Shown: piece after piece, positions 9,554-59,282 of the stretch
Numbering within the stretch: the first letter of the stretch is position 1
Layout: every line of letters starts with the position of its first letter
From: Anaerolineae bacterium
GTDB taxonomy: Bacteria; Chloroflexota; Anaerolineae; UBA1429
Length of the DNA: 64,000 bases
Reading direction: 5' to 3'
NCBI GenBank assembly: GCA_040772225.1
Contig: JAXGYO010000002.1
Location: 1,725,762-1,789,761, forward strand
Made by a program: the position numbers and the translations under genes
Notes under the pieces: generated by a model
The model's database searches: none
Told to the model about the DNA's origin: nothing
What the model saw: the letters and a program-made list of their open reading frames with translations, nothing else

Positions 9554-9570
<17 letters not shown>

Positions 9571-12781: not shown

Positions 12782-12789
12782 ATATCCCC

Positions 12790-14531: not shown

Positions 14532-14540
14532 GGCGACCCC

Positions 14541-16049: not shown

Positions 16050-16134
16050 GGCTTACCTCAACTGGAATAAAACCGCCGCCCCCTGAGGAGCGGCTTCGCT
16101 GCACGCGGTGGGTCATCAACATCGACCCGATCAC

Positions 16135-28397: not shown

Positions 28398-28463
28398 GAG
28401 GTTCCACCATACGAAAAAAGGCCGCTGCTCACAGGCACCGGCCTTCCAGGGGTCGCCGCCGGC

Positions 28464-29351: not shown

Positions 29352-29545
29352 CCTGGGGTCTGTTTACACTATTGGTGACTATACACTGGCCACAGGGGAG
29401 TGTCAAAGCCAATTCGCAGGCGCCAGGCGCGCAACGAGCCGGGTCCCGTCCTGTCTGTGGGGCACTAATTGCTCTCCACAGACAGCAATGCTACAGTCAT
29501 TTCATGGGTCTATCGCCGCCTGACAGAGATTCATCCGGAGAGTAG

Positions 29546-32292: not shown

Positions 32293-32337
32293 CCCGTGCG
32301 GCGATCCCGACTCATGCAAGATTGGATCTGTGACACT

Positions 32338-32952: not shown

Positions 32953-33063
32953 ACCTGTGCCAAACCTGGCGCCAGGCCGTTCGCGGGGGCACAGGACCCC
33001 ACCTGTCGCCAGACGCGGTCCGAACGCGGCGCACGGAGAAAAGTGAAAACCTGGCCTGGAGCG

Positions 33064-33210
33064 ATGTTAATGCCGACAATCGGGCACGTGGCCGTCTGGT
33101 CAGCCGACATCGAGCACCTGCGGGCGTTCTACACTCGCTACTTTTGTGGCGTCGCAGGGGAAAAGTACACCAACAGGAGCACTGGCTTTCAGTCGTACTT
33201 TGGAGACCGT
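33064..33210 (+). pseudogene. VOC (glyoxalase-like) family gene, N-terminal fragment only
   Basis: MLMPTIGHVAVWSADIEHLRAFYTRYF...GFQSYF then stop. Ends at the left boundary of the IS element. Confidence 0.5.
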
Positions 33211-34746
33211 TGAGAAAGTTGGGGCAGACGGATAACAGAGCCCCATTAGGGCGCAAATTTACGAGTTATGGGGTTCTGCAGGGGTCGGAACGCTGGTCGA
33301 TAGGCTCCTCCAGGCCTGTTTTTGGCCCTCGTGATGCTCGTGGCGCCCGATAGATCGCTCTTGGCGTGTCCATCCGGTCCATAGGCGCACTACTCCCCTC
33401 TGTTCAGATGCTATTGAGAGTCGGGCCTCGTAACGAGACGCCCGTAAGGCCACGGATCAACTGCTTCAAGTTCAGAGCGATCGCGGTCAGGTACGCCTGC
33501 ACAGCGTAGCGCTCCAGAGAGAGATAACGGCAGTCCCTCAAACCATGATACAGCTTGGCTTCTCCGAACTTGCGCTCGATCTGATAGCGTGTGCCCAGCG
33601 CGGGCCGATACCAGGGTTCCTGTATGAGCTGTTGCCAGACCTGTTTGTTGGCATCCTTCTTCCGAGTGCGCGTGCCAACCAGATGGATCGCGTTTCGGAT
33701 ACCGAGTTGCTGCAGGATGTAGTGGATATGTGTGTCATCGTAGCCCCTGTCGGCAACGCAGGTGTCGACGGCCAGACCCTGCGCCAGGTCAGAGCGAATC
33801 AGATCGCACAGGTAGGCGTTGTCAGGACGATTGCCAGTGGAGATATGCAGACTCGTGATCATCTGGGCGCCCTCGTTAAAACTCGCGTGCAGCTTGTAGC
33901 CATAGAACCACTTCTTCCCCCGCTGCGGCTGGCCGTCCTCCCCATGGCAGGTGTAGGTCCCTTTACATCCCCAGCGGGCATCGGGATCGCGGGGTCCCCG
34001 GCCGTCATCCTTGCGCTGCTTCTCTTGCGCCAGATCCACGTCTGCAATGCTATGCGTGCTGTCCACCAACTGAAGGGGGCCAAATTCGATCTTCGCCTCT
34101 CTGGCAATCGCGATGATCTCATCCAGGAGACGCTCGTAGGCAACCACCTTGCCATTCTCCAGAATCCGATTCTTGAATAGGGTCAAAGTCGAGTGGTCAG
34201 GTGCGTGTGCGTCAATGGCCAAGCCCAGGAAATACTTGGCCGGGAGGAAGTAGTTGCAGAACTCTTCCACCTGGCGCTCCGATAGGTCATAGAGGTAGCT
34301 CAGCAACAGCATCTTTAGCAGGATGGCCGGGTCGATAGGAGGGCGTCCGACCTGACCTTTGCCCCTGTAGAACTTGATCAGACGATATGTGAAGCGCTGC
34401 CAGGGCACCAGATCGCGCAGCAGACGCAAGAAATGGTTCTCGGGGACGATGTTAGCGTACAAATAGTCACCGTAGAATGAGTCTGTCTCGGCTTTCTGCA
34501 GCTTCGGCTGAGCCATGGGGTCCTCCTCCGGCGGGATGCCCACAGTCTACCGGTTGTGCTCATCCTGGCAAGGTCATGCACCAGTTTATCAACACTCTCG
34601 AAAATGCCTGTTGATGCCCGACTAATTCTATAGTATAACACTAGACAATTGCGGATGCGTGGTGCTCCCGGCAGGGACGTCTACCATGGGTCTTTCGCCT
34701 TACCCGAATTGCCCTGGCAACTGCCGGGAGATGCTCACGTTCTATG
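33193..34746 (-). mobile_element. IS5-family insertion sequence (boundaries approximate)
   Basis: Contains a DDE transposase. Imperfect terminal inverted repeats GAGACCGTTGAG..GGCAG (left, about 33203) and CTGCC..CTCACGTTCT (right, about 34743). Flanked by VOC-family gene fragments. Confidence 0.55.
33404..34516 (-). CDS. IS5-family DDE transposase (DUF772 N-terminal + DDE_Tnp_1)
   Basis: N-terminal FLRLLRDLVPW block typical of IS5/IS1182-group transposases; DDE region. GGAGGAGG RBS before the ATG. Confidence 0.85.
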   Translation of the reverse strand: MAQPKLQKAETDSFYGDYLYANIVPENHFLRLLRDLVPWQRFTYRLIKFYRGKGQVGRPPIDPAILLKMLLLSYLYDLSERQVEEFCNYFLPAKYFLGLAIDAHAPDHSTLTLFKNRILENGKVVAYERLLDEIIAIAREAKIEFGPLQLVDSTHSIADVDLAQEKQRKDDGRGPRDPDARWGCKGTYTCHGEDGQPQRGKKWFYGYKLHASFNEGAQMITSLHISTGNRPDNAYLCDLIRSDLAQGLAVDTCVADRGYDDTHIHYILQQLGIRNAIHLVGTRTRKKDANKQVWQQLIQEPWYRPALGTRYQIERKFGEAKLYHGLRDCRYLSLERYAVQAYLTAIALNLKQLIRGLTGVSLRGPTLNSI

Positions 34747-35100
34747 CTTCAGTTTCTGGATCGGCTGAGCGAGATCCTCACTTATGGGAAGATGCCGGGC
34801 GACATGTCCGCCGTCGTGCCCGACGAGATGCGTGAACTGGTCGCCCATGCGGAGCTGAATATCCATGGAACCACGGTGGGCTTCTCGGACCATTTCCCGC
34901 CCAGTGCAGCCGTCACTGGCAACATCGTCGGCGGCTTGTTTCTGACGTATAGCGATGCTGCGGTGCTGCGAAAAGAGTTCGACGCACTGAGCGAGGCAGG
35001 CACGGTGGAGATGCCCCTGGCAGAGACGTTCTGGACCAGCCTGTACGGCGTACTGACGGACCGGTTCGGCGTTCCCTGGCAATTGATGATTGAAGACTAG
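34744..35100 (+). pseudogene. VOC/PhnB-like (COG2764) family protein, C-terminal portion lacking about 20 N-terminal residues
   Basis: YGKMPGD...HAELNIHGTTVGFSD...VEMPLAETFWTSLYGVLTDRFGVPWQL matches PhnB-like VOC proteins. ORF begins exactly at the IS right boundary. Confidence 0.55.
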
Positions 35101-35161
35101 CCTCACCAGGCTTGCGTGACGTCAAGGGACGAAAGACGATAAAGGGCTGCCGCTCGATGAT

Positions 35162-35190
35162 TTGCCTCAAAGGCCCGTCTGTGCTATAAT
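35162..35190 (+). promoter_or_regulatory. Sigma70-like promoter for rpsO
   Basis: -35 TTGCCT, 17-nt spacer, consensus -10 TATAAT (35185-35190). Confidence 0.45.
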
Positions 35191-35231
35191 CCTTGCTGTC
35201 AATCGAAGATTGTGCAGGAAGGACAAGCCAT

Positions 35232-35501
35232 ATGCCGCTAACAAAAGGCGAGAAGGACGCGATCGTAGAGGATTTTCACCGCCACCCTGACGACACAGGA
35301 TCGCCGGAGGTGCAGATCGCGCTGCTCACCAAGCGGATCAACAGGCTGACGGAGCACCTGAGAGAGAATCGGGCTGATGAGCACTCTCGTCGCGGCCTGC
35401 TAAAGCTTGTTGGCCAGCGACGGCGCCACCTGAATTATCTGAGCCGCGAGGATGAGACGAGATATCGTGAAGTGCTCGGCCGGCTCGGGCTCAGGCGCTA
35501 G
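35232..35501 (+). CDS. rpsO: 30S ribosomal protein S15
   Basis: 89 aa; [13 protein letters not shown]...[16 protein letters not shown]. Confidence 0.95.
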
Positions 35502-35535
35502 GTCCGCACAATCCGGGTGCGCTCTGCCAAAAACA

Positions 35536-35578
35536 AGAGAGTAGCTCTCGGCCCCCTGGGTCATGAGCTACTCTTTTT
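35536..35578 (+). terminator. rpsO terminator/attenuator hairpin
   Basis: 10-bp perfect stem AGAGTAGCTC/GAGCTACTCT followed by TTTTTG. Confidence 0.55.
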
Positions 35579-35636
35579 GCTAGGCAGACAATGGTTCGCG
35601 TTTCCACAGGGAGATCCAAGCAAGATTGCGCAGGAA

Positions 35637-35672
35637 TTGGGGAGTGTGCCTCAAGTGGACGGGACTCACTCC
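35637..35672 (+). promoter_or_regulatory. pnp leader stem-loop (candidate RNase III/autoregulatory site)
   Basis: 8-bp perfect stem GGGGAGTG/CACTCCCC with an 18-20 nt loop, about 60 nt upstream of the pnp start. Confidence 0.4.
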
Positions 35673-35731
35673 CCAGTCCCTGGTCAGTCTGCTCCGGACT
35701 CCCGCGAGTCTATGAGTGAGTAGGAGCAGAA

Positions 35732-37915
35732 ATGGAAAGAGAGTTTACAACGAGTTTCGGGCGAGAGCCCATCACCATCCGTACGGGCAAGCTGGCGCCG
35801 CAGGCTGGCGCCGCCGTGCTGATGCAATGGGGTGACACCGTCATCCTGGTGACAGCGACAGCCTCCAAGGAGCCCAGGCAGGGAATCGATTTCTTCCCCC
35901 TGACGGTTGACCTGGAGGAGCGTCGCTATGCCGCTGGCCGGATCCCCGGGGGCTTTTTCAAGCGCGAGGGCCGTCCTTCGACGGAAGCCATCCTCACAGT
36001 GCGCAAGGTCGACCGTCCGCTGCGCCCCCTGTTCCCAGAGGGCTATCGCAATGACGTACAGATCGTCATCACGCCGCTTTCCGCCGATGAAGAACACGCC
36101 ATCGACATCCTGTCGATCGTGGGCGCCTCAACGGCACTGATGATCTCGGATATCCCCTTTGAGACGCCAGTCGGCGCCACACGGGTCGGGTATATCGACG
36201 GCGAGTTCGTCATTAACCCGCTGAACAGCGAGATGGAGAGAAGCGAGCTGGACATGGCTCTGGCCGGCACCGAAGACCACATCAACATGATCGAAGTGGG
36301 TGCCAAGGAGCTTCCTGAGGACCTGATGTTGCAGGCGATCCAGCTGGGCCACGAGAACATGCAGAACCTGATCGCACTGCAAAAAGAGATGCGCGCGGCG
36401 ATCGGCAAGGAGAAGAAGGAAGGCCTGCGCTTTACGCTTCCCGCCGAGGTGCTGGATTACGTGCGGGCCAACGCAAGTGCCAGGATCGAAGACCTGGTAA
36501 AGAGCGCTGCTCCGCGCGATGAGCGCCGCGACGCCGAGCAGGCACTGCGTGACGAACTGATCGAGAACGCCGGTACCGAAATGCCCGCTTCAGAGATCAG
36601 TGAGGCGTTTGAGCTCCTGTCCAAACAGGCGATGCGCAAGCACATTATCGACTCGGGTATCCGGATCGATGGGCGCGGCCTGGACGATATCCGCGCCCTC
36701 AGTGCGGAGGTGAGCCTTTTGCCCCGCGTACACGGCTCGGCCCTCTTTAACCGTGGCGAGACGCAGGTGCTCAACATCGTGACTCTGGGCTCGGCCGACG
36801 ACGAACAGCGCATCGAGTGGCTGTCCGAGGACGGCACCCGGCGCTATATGCACCACTACAACTTCCCGCCCTACTCGACAGGCGAGACCGGGCCCATGCG
36901 TGGACCCCGCCGTCGAGAGATCGGCCACGGTGCCCTGGCGGAGCGAGCCATCGAGGCCGTGCTGCCTTCGCCAGAAGAGTTCCCGTACACGATTCGCTCG
37001 GTTTCCGAAGCGATCTCGTCTAACGGGTCCACTTCCATGGCCAGCACCTGCGCAAGCAGCCTGGCGCTCTATGATGCCGGTGTGCCTTTGCGCGCTGCGG
37101 TAGGCGGCATCGCTATAGGCCTGATCACGTCCGACGATCGCTATGCTCTTTTGACGGACATCCAGGGTCTCGAGGACCATCTGGGTGACATGGACTTTAA
37201 GGTGACTGGCACAACCAAGGGCATCACAGCTATCCAGCTGGACATCAAGATCGCCGGCCTGCCGCACCAGATCATTGCAGAGGCCCTGCACAAGGCTTAC
37301 GTGGCCAGGATGAAGGTGCTGGATGTGATGAACTCCGTGCTGTCCGCACCGCGGACGGACATGTCTCCGTATGCGCCGCGCATCACCACGGTGACGATCC
37401 CGGTCTCCAAGATCGGTGCACTCATCGGGCCAGGCGGCAAGAATATCCGCGGGATCATTGACGATACGGGCGTCAGCATCAATGTTGACGATGATGGCGT
37501 GGTTACGGTAGCCTCCAACAATGGGGAGGCCATGGCCGAGGCGCTGTCCCGGATCCAGGCAATTACCGCAGAGCCGGAAGTAGGCCGCATCTACACCGGC
37601 AAGGTCGTCCGCACCACAGACTTTGGTGCTTTTGTCGAGTTCATGCCCGGGCATGATGGCCTGGTGCACATCTCCCAGCTGGCTGATTTTCACGTCGCCA
37701 ATGTCGAGGATGTCGCACAGGTGGGCGACGAGATCACCGTCATGGTGACAGACATCGACTCCAACGGCCGGGTGAGACTGTCTCGCCAGGCAGTTCTAGA
37801 AGGATGGACGGCCGAGGAGGCCCGAGACCGCGATCGCAAGCCCAGTGGCGGCGGCGGCCGAAGCCGCGATGGCGGACGCAGTCGTGACGGCGGCTCCCGC
37901 GGTCGCTCGCGCTAA
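35732..37915 (+). CDS. pnp: Polyribonucleotide nucleotidyltransferase (PNPase) with Arg/Gly/Ser/Asp-rich C-terminal tail
   Basis: 727 aa; RNase PH, KH and S1 blocks. Tail GGGGRSRDGGRSRDGGSRGRSR. Confidence 0.95.
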   Translation: MEREFTTSFGREPITIRTGKLAPQAGAAVLMQWGDTVILVTATASKEPRQGIDFFPLTVDLEERRYAAGRIPGGFFKREGRPSTEAILTVRKVDRPLRPLFPEGYRNDVQIVITPLSADEEHAIDILSIVGASTALMISDIPFETPVGATRVGYIDGEFVINPLNSEMERSELDMALAGTEDHINMIEVGAKELPEDLMLQAIQLGHENMQNLIALQKEMRAAIGKEKKEGLRFTLPAEVLDYVRANASARIEDLVKSAAPRDERRDAEQALRDELIENAGTEMPASEISEAFELLSKQAMRKHIIDSGIRIDGRGLDDIRALSAEVSLLPRVHGSALFNRGETQVLNIVTLGSADDEQRIEWLSEDGTRRYMHHYNFPPYSTGETGPMRGPRRREIGHGALAERAIEAVLPSPEEFPYTIRSVSEAISSNGSTSMASTCASSLALYDAGVPLRAAVGGIAIGLITSDDRYALLTDIQGLEDHLGDMDFKVTGTTKGITAIQLDIKIAGLPHQIIAEALHKAYVARMKVLDVMNSVLSAPRTDMSPYAPRITTVTIPVSKIGALIGPGGKNIRGIIDDTGVSINVDDDGVVTVASNNGEAMAEALSRIQAITAEPEVGRIYTGKVVRTTDFGAFVEFMPGHDGLVHISQLADFHVANVEDVAQVGDEITVMVTDIDSNGRVRLSRQAVLEGWTAEEARDRDRKPSGGGGRSRDGGRSRDGGSRGRSR

Positions 37916-42197: not shown

Positions 42198-43577
42198 CTA
42201 GCGCCCGGCAAGCCTCTCAACATAGTCCTGCCCCAGAATGACGGCCACATCAACCGCCTCGGTGACATCATCCTGGTAGATCACCGCTTCAGGATCCACC
42301 CCCAACTCCAGGGCAAGGGCAGCCACCGTCAGGGGCCTGTCACGATAAACAACGATAAGCGTCTGGGTGTGGTCAAAGCGGTCGGCGCTGCTATAGCCAG
42401 CGACGACATAGCCCTTGTCCTGCAGGAGCGCCGCGGTTTGCTGCGCCAGGTCGGTCGTCATCGTCCCATTGTATATTGCGACCGACGCCTGCTCGGCGCG
42501 GAACGCATCCGCAGGGACTGGCTCCTCCGCAGGCGGGGTCAGGGACGTCGTCGGGAACAACTCATCAACCAGAATCCGCACCTTGTCCCAATCCGCCACT
42601 TCCACCATCCAGCCCTGTGGCGTGGTGACGGTCGTCGTCATGGAGCCGTCAATAACGCCGCTGCGCAGATTGGCGGGATCGATCTTGCGCGCCGCATCCG
42701 CCAGCGTAACGATCTGCGGGAGCGTGAGATCTGTTTGGACCGACGACCCCAGGAGTTGCAGAATAATGGGGATGCGGGTCAGCGGAATATCCAGACTGAG
42801 GATCTTGTCAAAGGCCGCACGTATCACCTGCTGCTGGCGCTCCATGCGAGAAAAGTCACTGGACCCATGGCGTGTGCGGGCATACTGCAGCGCCATCTCG
42901 CCATCCATATGCTGCAGCCCTGCGGGGATATAGAGCTCCATGGTGCCATAGTCCGCCGTGGGATATTTGGCATCGTAGATATCCTCGGCCACCTCGATAT
43001 CCAGCCCCCCGATGGCATCCACCAGTTGCTCAAAGCCAGCAAAGTTGACGCGGATATAGTGGTGGACCGGCACGCCGAGCGCGTACCAAACGGTCTTTTT
43101 CGCTAGTGCGGGCCCGCCGCCCGGATAGTTCTGATCATCCCCGATGTAATGCGCCGTATTGATGCGGCTCTCACCGTAACCTGGTATGGTCGTCCAAAGG
43201 TCTCGGGGAATGGACAGCATCGACGCTGTGTTACTCACGGGATCCAGCGACAGCAGAATCATGGTGTCCGTTCGCCAGGGGCCAGTTTCGCCATCGCGCT
43301 GATCGATGCCCAGTGCCAGCACATTGATGCGCTCGTCGAGTTCGACAGCCTGAGGCAATACCACTTCGTCAGCCCTGGCCGGGGTGTTTTGATCTGGGAC
43401 AGGCTCTCCCACGGTCTGCGTCACTTGCACGACGCGATCTGCAAAGGGCAGATTCATCTGTGCCACCACCGAGCGCACCGTGCTAAAGAAAAAGAACCCC
43501 GACCACAACGCTCCGGCGGTGATGATCACCGTCAGAAAAGTGCTGATCGCGCGCTGCCACGAGCGTTCTCTGGGCAT
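42198..43577 (-). CDS. LCP-family (LytR-CpsA-Psr) cell-envelope phosphotransferase with LytR_C domain
   Basis: LCP blocks (RTDTMILLSLDP, SIPRDLWTTIPGYG, NFAGFEQLVDAIGG) and an N-terminal TM anchor. Start trimmed to MPRERSW after a GGAAGGA RBS. Confidence 0.85.
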   Translation of the reverse strand: MPRERSWQRAISTFLTVIITAGALWSGFFFFSTVRSVVAQMNLPFADRVVQVTQTVGEPVPDQNTPARADEVVLPQAVELDERINVLALGIDQRDGETGPWRTDTMILLSLDPVSNTASMLSIPRDLWTTIPGYGESRINTAHYIGDDQNYPGGGPALAKKTVWYALGVPVHHYIRVNFAGFEQLVDAIGGLDIEVAEDIYDAKYPTADYGTMELYIPAGLQHMDGEMALQYARTRHGSSDFSRMERQQQVIRAAFDKILSLDIPLTRIPIILQLLGSSVQTDLTLPQIVTLADAARKIDPANLRSGVIDGSMTTTVTTPQGWMVEVADWDKVRILVDELFPTTSLTPPAEEPVPADAFRAEQASVAIYNGTMTTDLAQQTAALLQDKGYVVAGYSSADRFDHTQTLIVVYRDRPLTVAALALELGVDPEAVIYQDDVTEAVDVAVILGQDYVERLAGR

Positions 43578-43937
43578 GAATCGTTCCTTCCGAGAGCTTC
43601 CTGAGGTGTAACGGGTCGAGTATATCACAGGCACGCCAGTCGACCAAAGGGCAGCGCAAATCTTGGGCCTATCGCTCCTTCGGCCGGCTGGCCAGGTTCG
43701 AAACAACGTGATTATGACGCCAGGCGTAACCGAATTGTTCCACCGCCCCGACGCTGCCCTGCGGGTGATCATCACACATGCGATACAGCCTCGGTGCTCG
43801 ACGCATAAGCAAAAGCTTGGTATCATAGCGAGACAGGATGCCTGCCCGACGGACGCCGGCCCGCGCGGCGCACGCCCGGCGTCTATGCAGAAGCTGTTTC
43901 GCGGCCACAATAGTGGCCTGGCACCAGAGCACAAGAG

Positions 43938-45515
43938 GTGATCATGATCAATCTGCTCAGCTGGAGCGATGTCCCGGCAATGTTCGGAAACCGGTTGTTT
44001 CTGGACTATGTCGGACAACAATCTCGTGCCCTCTCGTACTATACCCATGGACCCACCGATTATGCTGCTGCACTCGCAGCGCGGGAGGGACACGCCTATC
44101 CCCGTGCCGAGGTAGCCGATCTGCTCGAGCACTACAATCGCCCCCTGGGAGCCTCCGAGCAGACGCTGTCGAACATCTCTGCACTTGCGCAGCCAGACGT
44201 GTACTGCGTCGTCGGCGGTCAACAGGCCGGGCTGCTTGGCGGACCAGCCTATGTGGCGTACAAGATCGACTGCACTGTGCGGCTCGCGCGCCGCATCTCG
44301 GACATGCTCGGTGTGCGTGTCGTTCCGATATTCTGGCTCGCGAGCGAGGATCATGATTTCGGCGAGATCAACCACACCCACTATGTGCAGCGGGATGGGG
44401 AGATCGGTCGCGTCTCCTTTGACTGGCACGACAAGGGACGTCCGATCGCGGACCTGGCTTTGACAGAGCAGGTTCGCAAAGCGGTCGATGAGTACTGGAC
44501 CTCAGCACAGCCAGGACCGTTTGCAGAGGTTACTCGTGCGTTGACTGAGCCACGCAACTCCCGGTACTGCGACTGGTTGGCTGCTTTCTGGCTCAAACTG
44601 TTCGCTGACGACGGCTTGGTGGTCGTCGAACCGTCGACGCTCCGGCCTGTGGCGGGGTCCTTTTTCCAGAGAGCATTGCAGGAGCGCGAGACCATCGGCA
44701 ACCACCTGCAGGGCGTGGCCGATCGCCTGCAGCAGGACGGCTACACCCCGCTGCTGGATCCAGAGACTGCCGGAGTGCTGTACACCTTTGATGACAACGG
44801 GCGACGCGTTCGCGTTCACGAACCCGCCACGCGACTGGCGGAGGCCCTGACGCACCCCGAGCGCTTTTCGACCGATGCGGCGCTGCGCCCGCTGCTGGCA
44901 GACAGTACGCTGCCAGTCATCGCCAGCACGCTGGGGGCCGGCGAGTTGGCCTACCAGGGTATGTTGCGTCCGGTCTATGAGGAATTTGGCATCCCTCAGC
45001 CGATCTGCTTTCCCCGCCAGAGCTACACTTTTGTGTCTGCGACCGAGGAGGAGCGGCTGGCGGCCTACGGTCTGCGCCCGAGGGATGTCATGCGACATGA
45101 GATCGACATGGACAGTAGCATGCGAGGTTTGATGCCTCCCGGAGAACTGGACCGGTTCGCTGAGGCGCGTACGAACATTGAGCGGGCACTCGATCCATTG
45201 CGAGACTATGTTGAGCAGCTGGATCCCAACCTGGGCCGCTCATGGGAGCAGGCTCTGTCGACAGCGCTGCGCAACATCGACAAACTTGAGGACCGCGCCG
45301 TGAATGTGACCCTCAGCCGGGGTGGCTACTCCCGCCGCGAGCTGCAAACGCTGCGCAACATCATTCTGCCTCGCGGCCGGCTTCAAGAACGCGTTCTACC
45401 GGTGACACACTTTATGCAGCACTATGGGCCCTCGTTCCTGGGCAGACTGCGGGAGACTGGCGAACTTGAGCGCTTTGGACACGCCATCGTGACGCTGGAG
45501 GGTAAACATGCCTGA
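43938..45515 (+). CDS. bshC: Bacillithiol biosynthesis cysteine-adding enzyme
   Basis: BshC/YllA blocks VVGGQQAGLLGGPAY and IFWLASEDHDFGEINH. Confidence 0.8.
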   Translation: MIMINLLSWSDVPAMFGNRLFLDYVGQQSRALSYYTHGPTDYAAALAAREGHAYPRAEVADLLEHYNRPLGASEQTLSNISALAQPDVYCVVGGQQAGLLGGPAYVAYKIDCTVRLARRISDMLGVRVVPIFWLASEDHDFGEINHTHYVQRDGEIGRVSFDWHDKGRPIADLALTEQVRKAVDEYWTSAQPGPFAEVTRALTEPRNSRYCDWLAAFWLKLFADDGLVVVEPSTLRPVAGSFFQRALQERETIGNHLQGVADRLQQDGYTPLLDPETAGVLYTFDDNGRRVRVHEPATRLAEALTHPERFSTDAALRPLLADSTLPVIASTLGAGELAYQGMLRPVYEEFGIPQPICFPRQSYTFVSATEEERLAAYGLRPRDVMRHEIDMDSSMRGLMPPGELDRFAEARTNIERALDPLRDYVEQLDPNLGRSWEQALSTALRNIDKLEDRAVNVTLSRGGYSRRELQTLRNIILPRGRLQERVLPVTHFMQHYGPSFLGRLRETGELERFGHAIVTLEGKHA

Positions 45516-46224
45516 GGTGGACGTCATGGCCTTTGGGGCGCATCCGGACGATATCGAGATCGGTTGCGGCGGTACGCTGATCAAGCTGAGTGAGCGAGGG
45601 CGCTCCATCGCCCTGGTCGACATGGTGCGCGGGGAGATGGCCACCCGCGGCACTATCGAGACTCGCAAGGCCGAGTCCAAAGCAGCCACCGCCATCCTGG
45701 GCGCTGTGGCGCGCGAAAACCTCGAACTCGAGGATGGAAACGTCCATTCCAGTCCGGAGGCGCGCTATCGTGTCGCCAAGGTGGTGCGGCGATACCGCCC
45801 CTCGCTGGTCATGCTCCCCTACTATGAGGACCGGCACCCGGATCACTATAACGCCAGCCAGCTGGCCTACGAGGGGATCTTTGCCGCTGGCCTGGTGCGC
45901 CTGAACACCGGACAGGAGCCCTTCCGCCCGGCACGGATCATGTACTATATGGGCTGGTACGAGTTCGAGCCGACCTTTATCGTGGACATCAGCGAGCAGT
46001 ATGAGCGCAAGATGCAGGCGATCTATGCCTATACCACACAGTTTCGGCCCGATGACAACTTTTACCAGCAGACGCGTCTGACCTCCAGCGAGTACAACTG
46101 GCACCTGCAGAGCCGTATGGCGCATCTGGGCGCACAGATCGGCTCCAGGTATGGAGAGGGGTTTCTCATCCGCGGCCGCATGGCCGTCGACGATCCTCTT
46201 GACGTCTCATTCTCGACATTCTAG
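45508..46224 (+). CDS. bshB: N-acetyl-alpha-D-glucosaminyl L-malate deacetylase (LmbE/PIG-L family)
   Basis: VMAFGAHPDDIEIGCGGT zinc-binding LmbE motif. Overlaps the bshC end. Confidence 0.8.
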   Translation: MPEVDVMAFGAHPDDIEIGCGGTLIKLSERGRSIALVDMVRGEMATRGTIETRKAESKAATAILGAVARENLELEDGNVHSSPEARYRVAKVVRRYRPSLVMLPYYEDRHPDHYNASQLAYEGIFAAGLVRLNTGQEPFRPARIMYYMGWYEFEPTFIVDISEQYERKMQAIYAYTTQFRPDDNFYQQTRLTSSEYNWHLQSRMAHLGAQIGSRYGEGFLIRGRMAVDDPLDVSFSTF

Positions 46225-46260
46225 CGGGGCAGGCGCCTATTCCCCCTACGGAGAAATGCG

Positions 46261-47379
46261 ATGCGAATCGGGATCACCTGTTTTCCAACCCATGGCGGCA
46301 GCGGCGTTGTGGCGACCGAGCTGGGCAAGATACTCGCCAGGCGGGGCCATGAGATCGCCTTTATCTCTTATGCAGCACCCCTGCGCCTGGCTGATATCCC
46401 GGAGCGCGTGAGCTTTCATGAGGTCGATGCGATGCAGTATCCCTTGCTGCAGACCTATCCGAACGACCTCGCTCTGGCCTCGAAAATCGTATCGGTCGCT
46501 CGCATGAAGCGTCTGCAGGTGCTGCACGTGCACTATGCGATCCCCTTTGCCCCCGCTGCGCTCATGGCGAAATACGCCGCGCCCGAGCTGGACCTCAAGG
46601 TGGTGACTACCCTGCACGGTACCGACATCACGCTCGTCGGCAGCGACCCGACCTTTCGGCCGATCACCCGTTGGTCCATCCAGGAATCGGACGCCGTCAC
46701 GGCGGTATCCGAGTGGTTGAGGACAAGGGCGATTGAAGAGTTCGCTATCGACCGCCCAATCGATGTCGTGCACAACTTTGTCGATCCTGAGCGCCATGCG
46801 AGACCCTGCCCCGGTTGTATCCCGCCCCTGACGTGCGCCGGCGAGGTGACACTGCTGCACATCTCAAACTTTCGCCCGGTAAAGCGCGTCGAGGATGTGG
46901 TGCGCGTCTTTGCCCGTGTGCGCGCCAGGATGGAGGCACGGTTGCTGCTGGTGGGGGATGGACCCACGGCGGGCAGTGCCATGGAGGTTGCTACGGAACT
47001 GGGTGTCGCAGACCGCGTCCACTTTATCGGCGTAGTGGAACAGATCGAGCCTGTGCTCCAGCAGGCGAACCTGCTGCTACTCCCCAGTGAGACAGAGAGC
47101 TTTGGGCTTGTCGCGCTGGAAGCCATGGCCAGCGGTGTCCCGGTGATCGCCAGCCGCGTGGGCGGGCTGCCCGAGGTGGTTGCCCATGGTGAGACCGGCT
47201 ACCTGGCCCCCGTCGGTGACGTGGATGCGATGGCAGAATATGCCATCGGGCTGCTGCAGAATCCGATCGCATATCGGGAGTTCTCTCAAGCCGCTCACGA
47301 GCGTGCCGCCAGATTGTTTGACTATCATCTGCTTGTCGATCGCTACGAGGGCATCTACGACCGGGTCCTGGGAATATGA
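46261..47379 (+). CDS. bshA: N-acetyl-alpha-D-glucosaminyl L-malate synthase (GT4 glycosyltransferase)
   Basis: MRIGITCFPTHGGSGVVATELGKILARRGHEI matches the BshA/YpjH N-terminus. GT4 C-terminal E-x7-E region. Confidence 0.85.
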   Translation: MRIGITCFPTHGGSGVVATELGKILARRGHEIAFISYAAPLRLADIPERVSFHEVDAMQYPLLQTYPNDLALASKIVSVARMKRLQVLHVHYAIPFAPAALMAKYAAPELDLKVVTTLHGTDITLVGSDPTFRPITRWSIQESDAVTAVSEWLRTRAIEEFAIDRPIDVVHNFVDPERHARPCPGCIPPLTCAGEVTLLHISNFRPVKRVEDVVRVFARVRARMEARLLLVGDGPTAGSAMEVATELGVADRVHFIGVVEQIEPVLQQANLLLLPSETESFGLVALEAMASGVPVIASRVGGLPEVVAHGETGYLAPVGDVDAMAEYAIGLLQNPIAYREFSQAAHERAARLFDYHLLVDRYEGIYDRVLGI

Positions 47380-48179
47380 CGATATCGGACCTCGAGTCCC
47401 TCGTCCCCGAGCTGCCGGAGCTGCACCTGGCAGCGCCGGTTGAACGGGCCGGACTCGCTTCCTGGCCGGCCGCGTCAGAGCAATTCCTGGATGGCCTGCT
47501 CCTGAGGTTTTCCGAGGGGTATACGCGACGGGCCAACTGCGCCAGCGCCTACACCGCCGGGGCCATGGCTTTGGCGGACCGAATCGCCACCTGCGAAGCT
47601 TTTTTCGTTGCGCACGCTTTGCCCCCCGTGTTCCGCCTGATTAGCGCCTGGCCACAGCCGGCCCTGGATGCGGCCCTGGCCGAGCAAGGTTACGCCCTCG
47701 GCGACCGCACCCACGTGCTGACCGTGGGCCTGGCGGATAGCGCTGGACTGGGCGGATCCGCGCCATTCTGGCGGCAGGGTGATGCCAGCAGTTGGGTTGA
47801 GGCCTACAGCCAGGTAAGTGGCATGTCTCCCTGGCAGCACGATCCACTGCTGCGCATCCTGCGGGACATCAAGGGGGAGAGATTGCTATGTGGCCTGGGT
47901 TGTGTGGAACAGCCGTTGGCCTGCGGCCTTGGGGTCGTTGAGGGTGGCCTGCTCGGGCTGTTCGACATCGCCGTACGGCCAGATTGCCGGGGCCGGGGGT
48001 ATGGACGAACCCTGGTGACCGCGATGTTATCCCTTGGCAGAGCTTGTGGCGCGCGTGTGGCCTATCTGCAGGTCACAGAGGCGAATGTCGCTGCGAGGAG
48101 CCTGTACTACAGCCTGGGTTTCGCGGAGCTTTACCAGTACTGGTATCGTCAAAAGCCAACCCCGGCTCGCCAGGCCTGA
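47376..48179 (+). CDS. Two-domain GNAT-family N-acetyltransferase (MshD-like architecture)
   Basis: C-terminal acetyl-CoA binding motif (RGRGYGRTLVTAML...YLQVTEANVAARSLYYSLGF) with an N-terminal pseudo-GNAT half. ATGA overlap with the bshA stop. Confidence 0.65.
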   Translation: MTISDLESLVPELPELHLAAPVERAGLASWPAASEQFLDGLLLRFSEGYTRRANCASAYTAGAMALADRIATCEAFFVAHALPPVFRLISAWPQPALDAALAEQGYALGDRTHVLTVGLADSAGLGGSAPFWRQGDASSWVEAYSQVSGMSPWQHDPLLRILRDIKGERLLCGLGCVEQPLACGLGVVEGGLLGLFDIAVRPDCRGRGYGRTLVTAMLSLGRACGARVAYLQVTEANVAARSLYYSLGFAELYQYWYRQKPTPARQA

Positions 48180-48684
48180 CCGTCCGAGGGCACAGACTCC
48201 AACCAGCGTGCAACTCCACGGGCGGAGCGCAGGCGAATCACCCGTAGATGCGCATATTCGGGGAGCGCCAGGAGTCGCGGGTATTGCTGCCGGTGCCGGC
48301 GATGGCTCGAGAGCAGATACAGCACCAGACCATCTCTGCTGAAAATCGCGTCGCGGAAGGTCTCCCGATTGCTGTTCCAGAGCACCTCGCCCGACACGAC
48401 GCGCCAGAGCGCAACAGGCAAGGGCATGTCCAGCCAGATCAGGGTATCTGCGCTCTCCCAGATCAAATCCCGAGCCTGGCTATAGTTGCCATCGGTCACC
48501 CATCCCTCACCCAGCGCCAGACTGATTCTGTCACGCAGAACCTCGCGCGACACCGGCTGCCAGCCTGTCTCCCAGTAGAGGCTGTCCAGTTCCACATGAG
48601 GCACCCCCATGCGCTGCGCCAGGGCAACAGCCAGCGTAGTTTTCCCGCGCCCGTCGATCCAATGATGGCGACGCGTCGCATCAT
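48149..48684 (-). pseudogene. P-loop NTPase (FlaR/topology-modulation, adenylate-kinase-like) with homopolymer frameshift
   Basis: N-terminus MMRRVAIIGSTGAGK in one frame; TTLAVALAQRMGVPHVELD...WVTDGNY in the -1 frame. Junction in an A4 run (plus-strand TTTT at about 48634-48637). Confidence 0.55.
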
Positions 48685-48753
48685 CGCGCCACCTGTTGGG
48701 TTGGGAGCCATGAATACTCCTGAGTGGGGATGGTCGCCGTCTGACCGGCGAGC

Positions 48754-49020
48754 CTACGAACGCGTCGTTCCGGCGAGGCGCTTCCCCTTGTCGGTCACGC
48801 GCCAGACCCGCCTGTTGCCCAGGATCGCACAGATTGCGGCCTGAGCGCAACCAGCACAGTGGCGATCGCATTCTCCGGTGACAGCGACGAGATAGCCGCC
48901 CCTCTCTAGATCCTGCAGCATCTGCTCGACAAGGTCAGCACTCACCGAGAGCCGTGACGCCACGTCCTGGACGGTGGACAGTTCACCACTGGCGAGGATC
49001 TCGAGAAGATTTTCCAGCAC
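48754..49020 (-). CDS. feoC: FeoC-like transcriptional regulator
   Basis: 88 aa winged-helix protein with a C-terminal Cys cluster (CDRHCAGCAQAAIC), directly after feoB. Confidence 0.6.
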   Translation of the reverse strand: MLENLLEILASGELSTVQDVASRLSVSADLVEQMLQDLERGGYLVAVTGECDRHCAGCAQAAICAILGNRRVWRVTDKGKRLAGTTRS

Positions 49021-49030
49021 AGCGCGTGCC

Positions 49031-51052
49031 CTACAGCCAGAGGCGGGCCAGCTGATAAACGACGATACCGCCAGCCAGAGCCAATAACCCCAAAAAGAGC
49101 ACGTTCACCAGCACCCACTTCCAGGATCCGGTTTCTTGACGGATGGCGGCCAGAGTGGCGACACAGGGGATAAACAGCATCTCTACTGCGAGAAAGGCCA
49201 GGCCGGAGGCCGGAGTGAACTCGGTACCCATGAGGGACCGCAGCCCGCCGCCTTGCTCGCCGACACCATACAGCACGCTCAGGGTGGCGACGGCATTCTC
49301 CTTGGCGACGAAACTGCTCAGAATCGCCACGATGGATCGCCAGCTCAGACCCATGAGATCGCCCACCGGCTCAAGCGCATGTCCGAGGACCGCCATGTAG
49401 CTGCTGTCGACATCGCCGCCGGGAAAAGTCACCAATGCCCAGACGATCACCGACACAGCCAGAATCACGGTTCCAGCCTTTTTCAGAAAAGACACCGTCC
49501 GCTGCCACACCGTCATGCCGATGGTGCGTCTGTTGGGGAGATGGTAGAGCGGCATCTCCATGATAAAGGCAGACTGGATGTTCTTGAGGAATACCTTCCG
49601 GATGATGATGCCTGAGAGCGCCAGAACCACCAGCGGCAGGGCGGTCATACCCACAGTCACCAGTACCGCTCGATCAGCAAAGAACGCCTGCGCCAGCACC
49701 GTCAGTACCGCAAGGCGTGCTGTGCAGGGGACCAGAGGCGCAAGCATAATCGTCAGGATGCGATCACGCCTGGATTCGAGAATGCGGGCGCCCATAATGG
49801 CCGGCACATTGCAGCCAAAGCCGAGGAATAGCGGCATAAAGCTCTTGCCATGCAGCCCGATGCTGTGCATAAAGCCATCCATCACATAGGCCGCGCGCGC
49901 CATATAGCCCACGTCTTCGAGAAAGCCCATGCCCGCGAAAAAGATCACCAGGATAGGAAGAAAGGTCAGCATCGTCCCGACGCCGCCGATGATTCCCTCG
50001 ACGGCCAAACCGCGAACCCACTCCGGCGCCTGCGCCAGCGCTTCGCCGGTCCAGCGGGCCAGCGGGCCCATCACGGCAGAGTCGACCCAGCCTTGCATGG
50101 GCCCACCGACGGCATAGGTCAGTCCGAAGATGGCTGCTAGAACGATGGCCAGGACCACAAGCCCCCAAAAGGGATGCGTGGCATAGGTATCGATGCGCTG
50201 AGTGATCGTGACATGTCCGGCCCTGGGCCTGGTCATGGCCGTGAGAGCCACCTGACTGATCCAGGCATAGCGTCCGCTGGCCACGGCAACGATCGCATCC
50301 TCGTGCGCTCGGAGCACATCCTGCATCTGCTCCCACGCCGGCGTTGGCAGCCAGTCCTTGGTCAAACCGGTGATCTGCTGATCGCCCTCCAGCAGCTTGA
50401 GTGCCACCCAATCCGCCGGGTAGGGCTCTGGAACAAAGTCACCAATAACCGCCAGCACGCGTTCCAGCACATCTTGATGATCGGCACGGATCTCCGGCCG
50501 GTTGACTTGCTGCGGCTCCTGTCGCTGAGCCACCTCTATGGCGGCATCCAGGAACTCGTGCACGCCGACGCCCCGTGCCGCCGTCATCGGCACAACAGGT
50601 ACGCCTATCGCCGCAGACAGCACCTCAGGGCGAATGGCATAGCCCTCCTGCTCGGCGACATCCATCATGTTCAGGCCGATCGCCAGCGGGCAGGAAAGCG
50701 CCAGTAGCTCTGTAACCAGGTAAAGGTTGCGTTCCAGCGAGGAGGCGTTGATGACGACCATCACCACGTCGGGGCGTTCTTTCAGGATATACTCGCGTGT
50801 GACCACCTCCTCCGGCGAGGCAGCGGTCAGGCTATAGGTGCCGGGGAGATCAATGATGTCCAGAACAAGACCATGGTGCTCGAGCGTACCCGAGCGCATC
50901 TCCACGGTCTTGCCGGGCCAGTTTCCCACATGCTGATTGAGACCCGTGAGCATATTGAACACGGTGCTCTTGCCAACATTGGGCTGCCCTGCCAGTGCGA
51001 TCGTCAGGCGGCGGGCGCCAGGCGTGCCAGTGAGCTGTGAACCGGTCGTCAC
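49031..51052 (-). CDS. feoB: Ferrous iron transporter B
   Basis: N-terminal GTPase (ALAGQPNVGKST) plus a polytopic membrane domain. Confidence 0.9.
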   Translation of the reverse strand: MTTGSQLTGTPGARRLTIALAGQPNVGKSTVFNMLTGLNQHVGNWPGKTVEMRSGTLEHHGLVLDIIDLPGTYSLTAASPEEVVTREYILKERPDVVMVVINASSLERNLYLVTELLALSCPLAIGLNMMDVAEQEGYAIRPEVLSAAIGVPVVPMTAARGVGVHEFLDAAIEVAQRQEPQQVNRPEIRADHQDVLERVLAVIGDFVPEPYPADWVALKLLEGDQQITGLTKDWLPTPAWEQMQDVLRAHEDAIVAVASGRYAWISQVALTAMTRPRAGHVTITQRIDTYATHPFWGLVVLAIVLAAIFGLTYAVGGPMQGWVDSAVMGPLARWTGEALAQAPEWVRGLAVEGIIGGVGTMLTFLPILVIFFAGMGFLEDVGYMARAAYVMDGFMHSIGLHGKSFMPLFLGFGCNVPAIMGARILESRRDRILTIMLAPLVPCTARLAVLTVLAQAFFADRAVLVTVGMTALPLVVLALSGIIIRKVFLKNIQSAFIMEMPLYHLPNRRTIGMTVWQRTVSFLKKAGTVILAVSVIVWALVTFPGGDVDSSYMAVLGHALEPVGDLMGLSWRSIVAILSSFVAKENAVATLSVLYGVGEQGGGLRSLMGTEFTPASGLAFLAVEMLFIPCVATLAAIRQETGSWKWVLVNVLFLGLLALAGGIVVYQLARLWL

Positions 51053-51055
51053 AGT

Positions 51056-51313
51056 CTATCGTCCCCTCTGGCGCACAAGCACATGCCTAGCCTGGCCGCG
51101 GCCCAGCGCGATACACGTGTCCAGCACATTGACGATAATCGGACCGCGGGGTGGATTTCGGAGGACACGAACCGTCACCCCCGGAGTGAATCCCAAAGCC
51201 GCCAATCGCCCGCTGAGTCCATGCCCCCCGAGCAGAGAAACGATGGAGGCCTCGTGGCCCTCTGGGACAGAATCAAGAGAAGTTGTCAGGTCGCTCAAAA
51301 GCGTACACCTCAT
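51056..51313 (-). CDS. feoA: Ferrous iron transport protein A
   Basis: 85-aa SH3-like FeoA domain (GRLAALGFTPGVTVRV). Confidence 0.8.
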   Translation of the reverse strand: MRCTLLSDLTTSLDSVPEGHEASIVSLLGGHGLSGRLAALGFTPGVTVRVLRNPPRGPIIVNVLDTCIALGRGQARHVLVRQRGR

Positions 51314-57009: not shown

Positions 57010-58437
57010 CTATTCCTTTTGCGACACCATCTGCAGAATCGCGCCCAGATCGGCGGTGACATCAAAGCTGCCCCAACGCCCGCTTGCATCGCCGGCGTTA
57101 AAGACCGCAAAGCCAATGACATAGGGGTCCCGCCGCAGCTCATCGTCGTACCAGGAGAGTTGCTCGATATATCCTGCGAGTGAGCCCTCGGGCCCGCTCT
57201 CCTCAAAGTCCTGCCAGCCTCCCAGTCCGGCCTTTTGGGCAACCAGCACCCCGCCATCAACGCCAGCCTCTGTCACCACCAGGGGCACAACCAGCCTGGC
57301 AGGGGCGAGATAGTGCTCGTACCAGTAGCGATAGCGCAACGTGAGACTGCCGTAATCCGCCTCCGGGTCGTGGCCGGGTATACCCTGCCCAACACCGTCC
57401 ATCATCGTCGGCGCCGAGTACTCGTGCAGAGCAAGAACGCCGCCATGGGCTTTGGCAGCCTGGATAGCAGGAAGGAACGCTGCAAACTCATCCGCTTCGG
57501 GCGTTCCAGTGGAAAAGTTTCCTACAGCGACCTTAAAGCCGAGGGCGGCCATCAGCTCAGCACGTTCAGCCTCAAAGCTCGCGTACCATGCCATGTCTGC
57601 GGGACTGTCGATGCCGGGTTCATTCCATCCCAACCAGTAGTCCACGCCTGGATTTGCCAGATATCGCGCTGCGTGGGCCATCACAAACTGTTGCGCGCGC
57701 TCGGCTGGATCGCCAGTCAGGGTCTGATCGACCTCATCAAATCGCCCCAGCGTGATCGTCCCAGGAGAAATCTCTTTGGCCTCAGTCAGCCAGCCCAAAT
57801 CCCCGACACCTACAAGTACCGCGGGCTGGGCATCCTTGATAAAGGCCATGATGTTCGGATCAGAGTTTCTGGTGACGTGCAATCCCAGCTTGCTGCGCCC
57901 GTCGGAATAGTCAAAGGACAGGGGCTCTTCCTCGACCACAAAGGCCATCTCGGCGCTCAAAGGCACGCTCCAAAGAGTAGTGCGACTGCCCTCGCCCTGA
58001 TCGACCACAAAGGCGCTCCACCCCTCGGACCAGTTCATCTCGATCTGGTGGCAGCACGCCAGTGGATCTGCCTCTTGATACGCAAAGACATGCGAAACAG
58101 ACTCGCCAGCAGGCAATACATCCACGAACCACTCGGCGCTCTGCTCATCCTCGGACTCTGGGGCAAAGAAACGGTCCAGGACAAACAGGCTGTACAGGTC
58201 CCAGCTGCTCAGGTTGCTCATGGTCACGACGTACCGCGGAGAGGTAGCTGGAACAAAAGTGGCCTGCAGGAGTAGCACATCGTCTGCCACAGGGTCTACA
58301 AGGGGAGCGGACAGATGCTGGGGTGCGTCTACGACGATGACGGAATCACCGCGCACCAGGGCGACAGGGGCGCAGGCCAAGATCACCAATGCCAGGGTGA
58401 AGAGCGCTCGAAGGATAGAGCCGGATCGCAAGTGCAC
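57010..58437 (-). CDS. Secreted clan GH-A (GH5-like) glycoside hydrolase-like protein
   Basis: Signal peptide after a GTG start (GGAGG RBS). WLGWNEPG (acid/base) and LVVTEAGVDG (nucleophile) motifs. Confidence 0.7.
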   Translation of the reverse strand: MHLRSGSILRALFTLALVILACAPVALVRGDSVIVVDAPQHLSAPLVDPVADDVLLLQATFVPATSPRYVVTMSNLSSWDLYSLFVLDRFFAPESEDEQSAEWFVDVLPAGESVSHVFAYQEADPLACCHQIEMNWSEGWSAFVVDQGEGSRTTLWSVPLSAEMAFVVEEEPLSFDYSDGRSKLGLHVTRNSDPNIMAFIKDAQPAVLVGVGDLGWLTEAKEISPGTITLGRFDEVDQTLTGDPAERAQQFVMAHAARYLANPGVDYWLGWNEPGIDSPADMAWYASFEAERAELMAALGFKVAVGNFSTGTPEADEFAAFLPAIQAAKAHGGVLALHEYSAPTMMDGVGQGIPGHDPEADYGSLTLRYRYWYEHYLAPARLVVPLVVTEAGVDGGVLVAQKAGLGGWQDFEESGPEGSLAGYIEQLSWYDDELRRDPYVIGFAVFNAGDASGRWGSFDVTADLGAILQMVSQKE

Positions 58438-58556
58438 CTTTGCCTCCAAGGCCGCCGCACAGAACGCAGGTTCGTGTACACTTAAAGTATACACGATGCT
58501 CAGATGCGCAACAAGGCCTTTCCATCCGCAGTTCTTACCGAGTCCCATGTGAAACA

Positions 58557-59282
58557 CTACGGAAATCCGACGCCAGGGCCAGGCGGATGGGTCAGCGCCA
58601 TGCCCCAGACGATCTCTGCACCGGCATCGCAGAGGGCCTGTGCACAGGCGGACATGGTCGCCCCAGTAGTGAGCACATCATCGATCAGAAGCACACGCAC
58701 GCCCCTGGGCACCTCTTCCGTACAAGCGAAAGCGCCTGCAACATTGTGCAATCGTTCCTCGGGCGAGAGCCCCACCTGAGACCGGGTCGCACGCCAGCGA
58801 TGCAGGACGTTGGGACACAGGTCAAGGCCAGTGTTTGCGCAAAAGCCGCGGCCAAGCAACTCTGCCTGGTTGTAGCCGCGCCGGCGCAACTGGGCGCGAT
58901 GGAGCGGGACGGGGATCACGACGTCCACAGTGCGCGCCTGCGCCCGCCAGGCGTCCGCGAGCAGGGTGGACAATGGATCCGCGAGGACGCGAACGCCACC
59001 GTACTTTAGTCCGTGCACGGCTTCGCGCAGGGGATAAATGTGAGGAGACAGTGTCAGTGCCCCTGCCAGCGCCTCCGTCCGGTTCCGGAGACGCGGCACA
59101 AGGTTCAGCCTACCGCGGCCGGGTATCGACGAGATGCACGCCGGGCAGAGCCAATCTCCTGCGCTGCCGCAGGCCACACAGTGTGGCGGAAACAGGCCAT
59201 CAAGCAGCGTTCCAAGGGGCCCGCTATCTTTCGCCCTGAGCCAGACTGGCAACGTCACCCTTCCTCGGGAAACTCGCTCCAC
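58557..59282 (-). CDS. comF: ComF-family protein (phosphoribosyltransferase-like)
   Basis: N-terminal Cys4 (CVACGS...CPAC) and a C-terminal PRTase motif (VLLIDDVLTTGATM). Confidence 0.7.
   Translation of the reverse strand: MERVSRGRVTLPVWLRAKDSGPLGTLLDGLFPPHCVACGSAGDWLCPACISSIPGRGRLNLVPRLRNRTEALAGALTLSPHIYPLREAVHGLKYGGVRVLADPLSTLLADAWRAQARTVDVVIPVPLHRAQLRRRGYNQAELLGRGFCANTGLDLCPNVLHRWRATRSQVGLSPEERLHNVAGAFACTEEVPRGVRVLLIDDVLTTGATMSACAQALCDAGAEIVWGMALTHPPGPGVGFP

Follow-up and report, generated by a model that had tools for sequence, protein, structure and literature searches.

Why should an operon for bacillithiol biosynthesis end in a gene for an acetyltransferase? The question is raised by a 64-kb stretch of DNA, called here the window, from contig JAXGYO010000002.1 of assembly GCA_040772225.1 of an Anaerolineae bacterium (Chloroflexota; UBA1429). 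In the region under study (window positions 43938-48179, + strand) four co-directional open reading frames (ORFs) encode the three bacillithiol enzymes, in the order bshC-bshB-bshA, and a protein of the superfamily of GCN5-related N-acetyltransferases (GNATs), referred to below as the GNAT. The initial annotation of this region took the three bsh genes for one operon, had the GNAT gene coupled to bshA by an ATGA overlap and suggested a modified thiol in this lineage, such as an N-acyl-bacillithiol. The operon and the coupling are confirmed: all three Bsh proteins pass the NCBIfam curated equivalog cut-offs (scores of whole-protein hidden Markov models, HMMs), the junctions are tight, and the TGA of bshA and the ATG of the GNAT gene share the sequence ATGA at 47376-47379. 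The idea of a modified thiol is alive and possible, yet it stands below the reading that we find best supported, namely that the GNAT, though expressed together with the bsh genes, N-acetylates amino acids (N-acetylglutamate type) in the manner typical of its family. We adopt the latter tentatively, by analogy with the family, at a confidence somewhat short of even.

A two-lobed acetyltransferase of the Rv0428c_C family

Its motif A, its fold and a match to PF00583 (51 bits, cut-off 21) place the protein in the GNAT superfamily. The AlphaFold (AF2) model, based on an alignment of 17 homologues, has a mean predicted local distance difference test score (pLDDT) of 91 and a predicted template modelling score (pTM) of 0.89, and consists of two GNAT-like lobes; motif A is present in the C-lobe only, as expected from the earlier description of a pseudo-GNAT N-half joined to a catalytic C-half (Table 1). 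Matches of the C-lobe to solved GNATs (PDB sequences), RimI among them, all fall within residues 160-252. In motif A, residues R205 and G208 are invariant in family alignments. Tyr244 aligns with the general-acid tyrosine of GNATs, and we assume for it the same catalytic role, as in GNATs generally. The N-lobe carries R44, G48, T50, R52 and N54, which the conservation analysis found to be invariant in the family.

The family itself is defined by domain PF24553 (Rv0428c_C), which the GNAT matches with 61.8 bits (gathering threshold 27.2) and which all its close homologues carry. The best NCBIfam model, NF049894, made for the Corynebacterineae-type N-acetylglutamate synthase Cg3035 (C-NAGS), aligns residues 22-257 with profile positions 69-297 of 300 and scores 84.5 bits; scores of the relatives range from 74 to 132 bits. 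Judged by these matches, the GNAT is an ordinary member of a large and widespread Rv0428c_C family of two-lobed GNATs of ∼250 residues, distantly related to Cg3035. An exhaustive HMMER search over 1.8 billion representative proteins found 373 representatives of the family at E ≤ 1e-30; at E ≤ 1e-10 there are 2416, and nearly every one is a full-length protein of ∼250 residues. When Cg3035 and Rv0428c are compared with the GNAT, both lobes align, no catalytic motif is damaged, and the N-lobe pattern R-x3-G-x-T-x-R-x-N is common to the ∼250-residue relatives. The genomic contexts differ: Cg3035 is accompanied by def2/xthA (PMC3827942), the window GNAT by the bsh operon.

Orthology to the mycothiol synthase MshD, whose architecture the initial annotation had likened to that of the GNAT, is rejected. 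The MshD model TIGR03448 gives 24 bits (cut-off 163) over residues 196-251 only, that is, over the acetyl-CoA motif, so that the GNAT lies outside both the MshD and the Cg3035 equivalog families, as neither cut-off is reached. MshD (PDB 1ozp and 2c27) is not among the phmmer hits in PDB sequences at E ≤ 1; in a profile search of the PDB it appears with 34 bits at rank ∼40. Four other tandem GNATs, of function unknown or different, are structurally closer than MshD. Two tandem GNATs solved by structural genomics, one from Staphylococcus epidermidis (3frm) and one from Kribbella flavida (4ius), are only 9-16% identical to the GNAT and come with no functional information. What stands of the proposed resemblance is the architecture, a tandem GNAT with only the C-terminal domain catalytic; a specific sequence relationship does not.

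An amino-acid N-acetyltransferase as the favoured reading

Cg3035, the only biochemically characterised relative of the GNAT, acetylates L-glutamate in vitro and complements an Escherichia coli argA mutant (PMC3827942). With this enzyme as the model, the C-lobe of the GNAT would bind acetyl-CoA via R205-x-x-G208-x-G210, with Tyr244 as the putative general acid, and the acetyl group would go to a primary amine, that of a small acceptor bearing a carboxylate. The acceptor would be held in the cleft with the degenerate N-lobe, where R44, R52 and N54 are likely carboxylate binders; a free acidic amino acid, modelled by L-glutamate, would be the likeliest candidate. The predicted product of the fourth gene is an anaplerotic N-acetyl-amino-acid (N-acetylglutamate-type) synthase. 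The thiol of the organism would be plain bacillithiol, and the link to the operon would be one of co-expression, not a step of thiol synthesis. The gene was captured once, in one Anaerolineae lineage, at the 3′ end of an ancestral operon nmbA-bshC-bshB-bshA (nmbA encodes a methyltransferase described below), and has since then been co-transcribed with bshA and translationally coupled to it. In Bacillus subtilis bsh genes are known to share operons with unrelated genes, which we count in favour of this reading.

Conservation lends support too. Of the 42 positions at which conservation among 159 other family members reaches 85% or more, the bsh-linked GNATs keep 88-95% (family mean 94%, standard deviation 5.5%).

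The genomic contexts of the wider family point the same way (loci of relatives are given below as L-numbers and their proteins as P-numbers). Relatives at ∼40% identity adjoin NUDIX/Ldh genes or ferredoxin reductase and ABC transporter genes, not bsh genes, and no bsh gene is found within 5 kb of family members in the bacillithiol-producing Bacillales Niallia and Paenibacillus. One relative, P0035, is named ‘N-acetylglutamate synthase’ by JGI. In a metagenome-assembled genome (MAG) of Ahrensia sp. (L002:6803-8795) a family GNAT with 32% identity, downstream of a peptidyl-prolyl isomerase (PPIase) gene, overlaps the 3′ end of argJ (PF01960, 451 bits). This overlap, in an alphaproteobacterium, is an independent link of the family to N-acetylglutamate and arginine metabolism, and it points to short-form N-acetylglutamate synthases of the Cg3035-like kind in organisms other than Actinobacteria. 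In plasmid records of Niallia, Paenibacillus and Comamonas that include family members, the neighbours are not informative. As a separate observation, L006 and L007 have glutamate synthase genes ∼5 kb away from their family GNATs, which are not linked to bsh genes.

Several observations weigh against an amino-acid acetyltransferase. The score of the GNAT with NF049894 is well below the equivalog cut-off of 280, and the N-terminal extension of Cg3035 (model positions 1-68) is absent. No arginine-biosynthesis gene stands beside the GNAT gene in the window, the nearest being carAB ∼37 kb away. The joint between bshA and the GNAT gene is kept in every sampled lineage of the clade, as an overlap of 4-16 nt or a gap of 5 nt, despite the saturation of synonymous sites, which is unusual for an unrelated passenger. 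In sister lineages the same operon carries the thiol-capping gene nmbA. Finally, some residues of the GNAT have changed in a way that would fit a new acceptor, as described in the next section.

Selection and residue changes

The GNAT gene is under purifying selection, with ratios of non-synonymous to synonymous substitution rates (dN/dS) of 0.24-0.31, and this selection is weaker than that on the bsh neighbours. For the window and L003, the one pair in which dS is unsaturated, dN/dS is 0.31 for the GNAT and 0.07-0.13 for the bsh genes; for the other pairs, whose dS is saturated, the values are 0.24-0.27 and 0.07-0.17. Amino-acid identities between the window and L004 are 85% for BshA, 89% for BshB, 72% for BshC and 51% for the GNAT. 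A dN/dS three to four times that of the bsh genes counts against an N-acetyl-bacillithiol synthase, a rival reading discussed below.

Just two of the changes at conserved positions are systematic. S55 (91% conserved) is replaced by C in all members lacking nmbA, and W41 (97% conserved) has given way to L or C in the group that unites L003, L004 and L005 with the window; the window GNAT itself has W41L and S55C, both in the N-lobe. About a dozen residues are fixed in a clade-specific manner, including Y59, H80, W92, H113, W132 and R201. The NF049894 score is 120 bits in L098, the basal member of the GNAT-bearing clade, which is similar to the scores of the unlinked P0010, P0013 and P0032 (111-132 bits), and ∼85 bits in the crown, by which we mean the clade without L098; the window belongs to the crown. 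The change at W41 and S55, together with the decrease from 120 to ∼85 bits after the loss of nmbA, would fit a change of acceptor. These substitutions and the newly fixed residues of the crown count in favour of an acetyltransferase acting on bacillithiol; the retention of the acceptor-side residues conserved in the family counts against it.

A single capture in one clade of Anaerolineae

The four-gene order, with bshA and the GNAT gene overlapping or nearly abutting, occurs in at least seven other loci, and such recurrence is far beyond chance expectation. All homologues on readable contigs with at least 43% identity lie directly 3′ of bshA; identity to the window GNAT is 76% in L003, 56% in L001, 51-52% in L004 and L005, 44% in L098 and 43% in L012, L013 and L095. 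Synteny extends further, to genes for a short-chain dehydrogenase/reductase (SDR) and a LytR protein upstream and to kinase-like, FeoC-like, FeoB, FeoA and Wzy_C genes downstream.

In neighbour-joining trees, computed without support values, the bsh-linked GNATs are monophyletic within the family and the topology of the GNAT tree matches that of the tree of concatenated BshC, BshB and BshA. The trees therefore indicate one capture of the gene in one Anaerolineae clade and vertical inheritance afterwards. Hence the adjacency of bsh and GNAT genes is to be counted as a single evolutionary event, though a long-lived one, since dS is saturated in all pairs save that of the window and L003.

No second event was found when 80 other metagenomic bshC loci were scanned with an HMM of the GNAT family. 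None has a family GNAT adjacent, only two weak GNAT matches being present, each 2-4 kb from bshC. Most of the 80 carry bshC alone and few carry bshC-bshB-bshA; the single operon is a minority arrangement overall, yet it is the usual one among these Anaerolineae. The initial annotation had allowed that the GNAT might be an unrelated acetyltransferase found only sporadically next to bshA. The outcome is halfway: the four-gene operon is constant within one clade, and the wider family is without bsh association.

Some members of the clade deserve a comment. In L095:10417-11391, L012:5224-6198 and L013:3499-4473 the GNAT has 324 residues owing to a C-terminal extension of ∼60 residues; in the same three loci the convergent kinase-like gene is missing and a gap of ∼440 bp precedes the FeoC-like gene. 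In L001:4572-8573 (Anaerolineales MAG CAZYWU010000016) the GNAT is truncated just after motif A and has internal deletions. We rejected this as a sign of dispensability, given that bshC, bshB and bshA of that locus also have frame breaks; the truncation is probably an assembly artefact rather than a true pseudogene. P0419, a family GNAT of 43% identity, and P0194, a BshC of the sister clade, are probably encoded on one contig of 13,633 bp. For P0184, a BshC of the crown clade on a 2.76-Mb contig, a word-indexed search returned no matching GNAT. Either case, P0419/P0194 or P0184, could alter the inferred age or constancy of the bsh-GNAT association.

nmbA in sister lineages and its inferred loss from the operon

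One enzyme proven to act on the cysteinyl amine of bacillithiol is NmbA (CT1040, PDB 9RI2) of Chlorobaculum tepidum, the N-methyl-bacillithiol synthase (PMC6282198, PMC12719100). NmbA is a methyltransferase dependent on S-adenosylmethionine, to which the GNAT is unrelated in fold and chemistry.

The nearest sister lineages, L096 and L097, have bshC-bshB-bshA and part of the synteny and no GNAT. In L096:6237-10472 the start of bshC is overlapped by a gene for a 255-residue methyltransferase which matches 9RI2 over its full length (E-value 2.6e-38). Gene nmbA precedes bshC, overlapping its start or abutting on it, also in L015 (3552-7715), L017 (2951-7133), L018, L040 and L052, the last three being partial, and it may likewise stand ahead of bshC on many other Anaerolineae bshC contigs. 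L097 has the operon with neither nmbA nor the GNAT gene adjacent. L098:3190-8181, basal to the GNAT clade, has all five genes in the order nmbA-bshC-bshB-bshA-GNAT; both end genes overlap their neighbours, and nmbA is intact (E-value 4e-40 to 9RI2).

A tblastn search with the L096 NmbA detected nothing in the window, in L001-L014 or in L095. None of the 120 best NmbA homologues, which reach down to 37% identity, is on the 2,137,889-bp contig that carries the window GNAT. The latter result suggests, without proving it, that nmbA is absent from the genome of the window. We infer the following order of events: an ancestral nmbA-bshCBA operon gained the GNAT gene, after which nmbA disappeared from the operon of the crown, the window included. 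A simple replacement of nmbA by the GNAT gene is weakened as an explanation, given the presence of both genes in L098 and of neither next to the operon in L097.

Whichever reading of the GNAT is right, the nmbA-bshCBA operons of the relatives lead us to predict N-methyl-bacillithiol in Anaerolineae (Chloroflexota), a phylum on which the two NmbA papers (PMC6282198, PMC12719100) are silent in their main text.

Alternative readings

The strongest rival is that the GNAT is an N-acetyl-bacillithiol synthase. Its substrate would be bacillithiol, whose free cysteinyl amine it would acetylate just as MshD acetylates that of Cys-GlcN-Ins, and the N-capped thiol would functionally replace the N-methyl-bacillithiol made by NmbA. 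Such a role is suggested by the place of the gene, which ends a biosynthetic operon, is coupled to bshA in translation and has been retained across the clade, and by the fact that a proven bacillithiol-capping gene rides in the same operon of relatives. The succession of nmbA-bshCBA, of both genes (L098) and of operons without nmbA fits non-orthologous displacement. None of the 120 best NmbA homologues lies on the contig of the window genome, which also counts in favour. The pair of Arg residues conserved in the family could bind the malyl dicarboxylate of bacillithiol. N-acetyl-bacillithiol is a compound without description in the searchable literature.

Against it stand the lack of a specific relationship to MshD and the fact that the bsh association, being one evolutionary event, is also one observation. 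Members of the wider family are found in organisms and settings that have nothing to do with bacillithiol. In L098 the GNAT shares its operon with an intact nmbA, whose product already caps the cysteinyl amine; GNAT and NmbA would then be rivals for one and the same nitrogen, and this coexistence also speaks for the amino-acid acetyltransferase. L097 has lost the nmbA of the operon with no GNAT in exchange, and the loss of nmbA thus needs no replacement. We therefore consider it rather unlikely, if clearly the best of the alternatives, that the GNAT acts on bacillithiol. The corresponding history, in which the clade would make N-acetyl-bacillithiol, a recruited Cg3035-family GNAT would have displaced NmbA after a stage of coexistence, and the MshD step would have been re-invented by convergence on the scaffold of bacillithiol, we regard as equally doubtful.

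A second rival places the GNAT downstream of the thiol, in detoxification. An S-substituted cysteine, released from a bacillithiol conjugate by the amidase, would be N-acetylated to a mercapturic acid for export, the GNAT being a cysteine S-conjugate N-acetyltransferase. A GNAT step in bacillithiol detoxification is known biochemically and had no gene assigned as of PMC5815605; an amino-acid acceptor with a free alpha-carboxylate fits the chemistry of Cg3035, and the link to the bsh genes would be explained as well. The neighbours to be expected (the amidase BshB2/Bca, S-transferases, exporters) are not adjacent, no independent occurrence lends support, and the thiol of L098, being N-methylated, would yield N-methyl-cysteine conjugates, presumably poor acetyl acceptors. 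We regard this proposal as improbable.

Least probable of all, by a small step, is another bacillithiol-related or regulatory acetylation, either of GlcN-malate back to GlcNAc-malate (a throttle or recycling step set against BshB) or of lysines or N termini of the Bsh proteins: the coupling in the operon, the possible fit of GlcN-malate, a small amine with two carboxylates, to the conserved Arg-pair pocket, and the RimI protein N-terminal acetyltransferases as the best PDB matches of the C-lobe speak for it; against it are the futile cycle into which BshB, being co-expressed, would draw it, the confinement of the RimI similarity to the generic acetyl-CoA core and the lack of a precedent in bacillithiol producers. 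A modest share of the probability we assign to none of these readings.

Structure of the operon and its surroundings

The features of the region are listed in Table 1. For bshC a GTG at 43938 also opens the ORF, but identical database copies (P0179, 100% identity) have 523 residues, which makes the ATG at 43944 the probable start. The bshC and bshB genes overlap by 8 nt, as read from the sequence, while 36 nt lie between bshB and bshA, where a GGAG stands 7 nt 5′ of the bshA ATG. The GNAT gene is the last of the unit, since its 3′ end is overlapped by the convergent kinase-like gene; the kinase-like gene is syntenic in L003, L004, L005, L097 and L098.

Table 1. Features of the bacillithiol operon region and of the GNAT protein (window coordinates)
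Feature	Position	Strand	Evidence and remarks
LytR-CpsA-Psr family gene, divergent	42198..43580	-	PF03816 139 bits, PF13399; upstream boundary of the operon
Sigma-70-like promoter match	43798..43826	+	TCGACG, 17-nt spacer, TATCAT, with TG; weak evidence
bshC, bacillithiol cysteine-adding enzyme	43944..45515	+	523 aa; TIGR03998 334 bits (cut-off 266); PF10079, PF24850
bshB1, GlcNAc-malate deacetylase	45508..46224	+	TIGR04001 271 bits (cut-off 182); PF02585
bshA, N-acetylglucosaminyl-L-malate synthase	46261..47379	+	TIGR03999 486 bits (cut-off 274)
Two-lobed GNAT, last operon gene	47376..48179	+	267 aa; PF24553, PF00583, AF2 model
GNAT N-lobe, ∼aa 1-125	47376..47750	+	GNAT-like fold without acetyl-CoA motif (secondary structure of the model)
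GNAT catalytic C-lobe, ∼aa 131-260	47766..48155	+	matches to solved GNATs
Acetyl-CoA pyrophosphate-binding motif A, R205-G-R-G208-Y-G210	47988..48005	+	translation
Tyr244 codon	48105..48107	+	99% conserved in family
P-loop kinase-like gene, convergent	48149..48730	-	weak SKI/AAA match; 3′ end overlaps GNAT 3′ end by 31 nt

The promoter match sits in the 363-bp intergenic region between the divergent LytR-family gene and bshC and is the only promoter-like site in 43400-48600, where shuffled sequence averages 1.3 such sites; promoter and terminator matches are no commoner than in shuffled sequence. No Rfam family was found in the region.

Directly downstream (window positions 48754-51313, - strand) there is a ferrous-iron transport operon with a FeoC-like gene (88 codons), feoB and feoA, whose position beside the bsh operon is conserved in L003, L012, L013, L095, L096 and L098. 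Elsewhere in the window, a nitrogen-assimilation cluster (3397-16052, - strand) includes a gene for glutamine synthetase, one for a PucR-type regulator, carB and carA, and glutamate synthase in split form, the last as separate GATase_2, Pyr_redox_2 and Glu_synthase ORFs. An ORF for a DDE transposase (33404-34546, - strand; DUF772 and DDE_Tnp_1) is located in a stretch of low GC content at 32000-36000 (0.58, compared with ∼0.62), which is probably an insertion sequence. Two long ORFs of 458 and 555 codons, at 28002-29378 (+ strand) and 57010-58677 (- strand), have coding-like GC content at third codon positions (GC3) and no Pfam match at E ≤ 1e-5.

Implications

Few redox thiols of bacteria are believed to be as widespread as bacillithiol and its N-methyl derivative; the reactivity and stability of the thiol are tuned by its cysteinyl amine, which may be free, methylated or acetylated. 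The bsh genes described here are standard and the GNAT family is known in Pfam; what is new is an operon variant, with a conserved GNAT gene appended to bshCBA, and an intermediate that has both nmbA and the GNAT gene.

If the GNAT is an amino-acid acetyltransferase, as we tentatively favour, the locus is a caution against inferring function from operon adjacency in a single clade, and the poorly studied Cg3035-like family would extend well beyond Actinobacteria. If instead the GNAT caps bacillithiol, this would be a third variant of the thiol, and the sister lineages with nmbA only, with both genes and with the GNAT gene only would make a natural experiment in enzyme displacement. The five-gene operon of L098 offers a natural test case, in which a methyltransferase and an acetyltransferase either act on the same nitrogen or do not.

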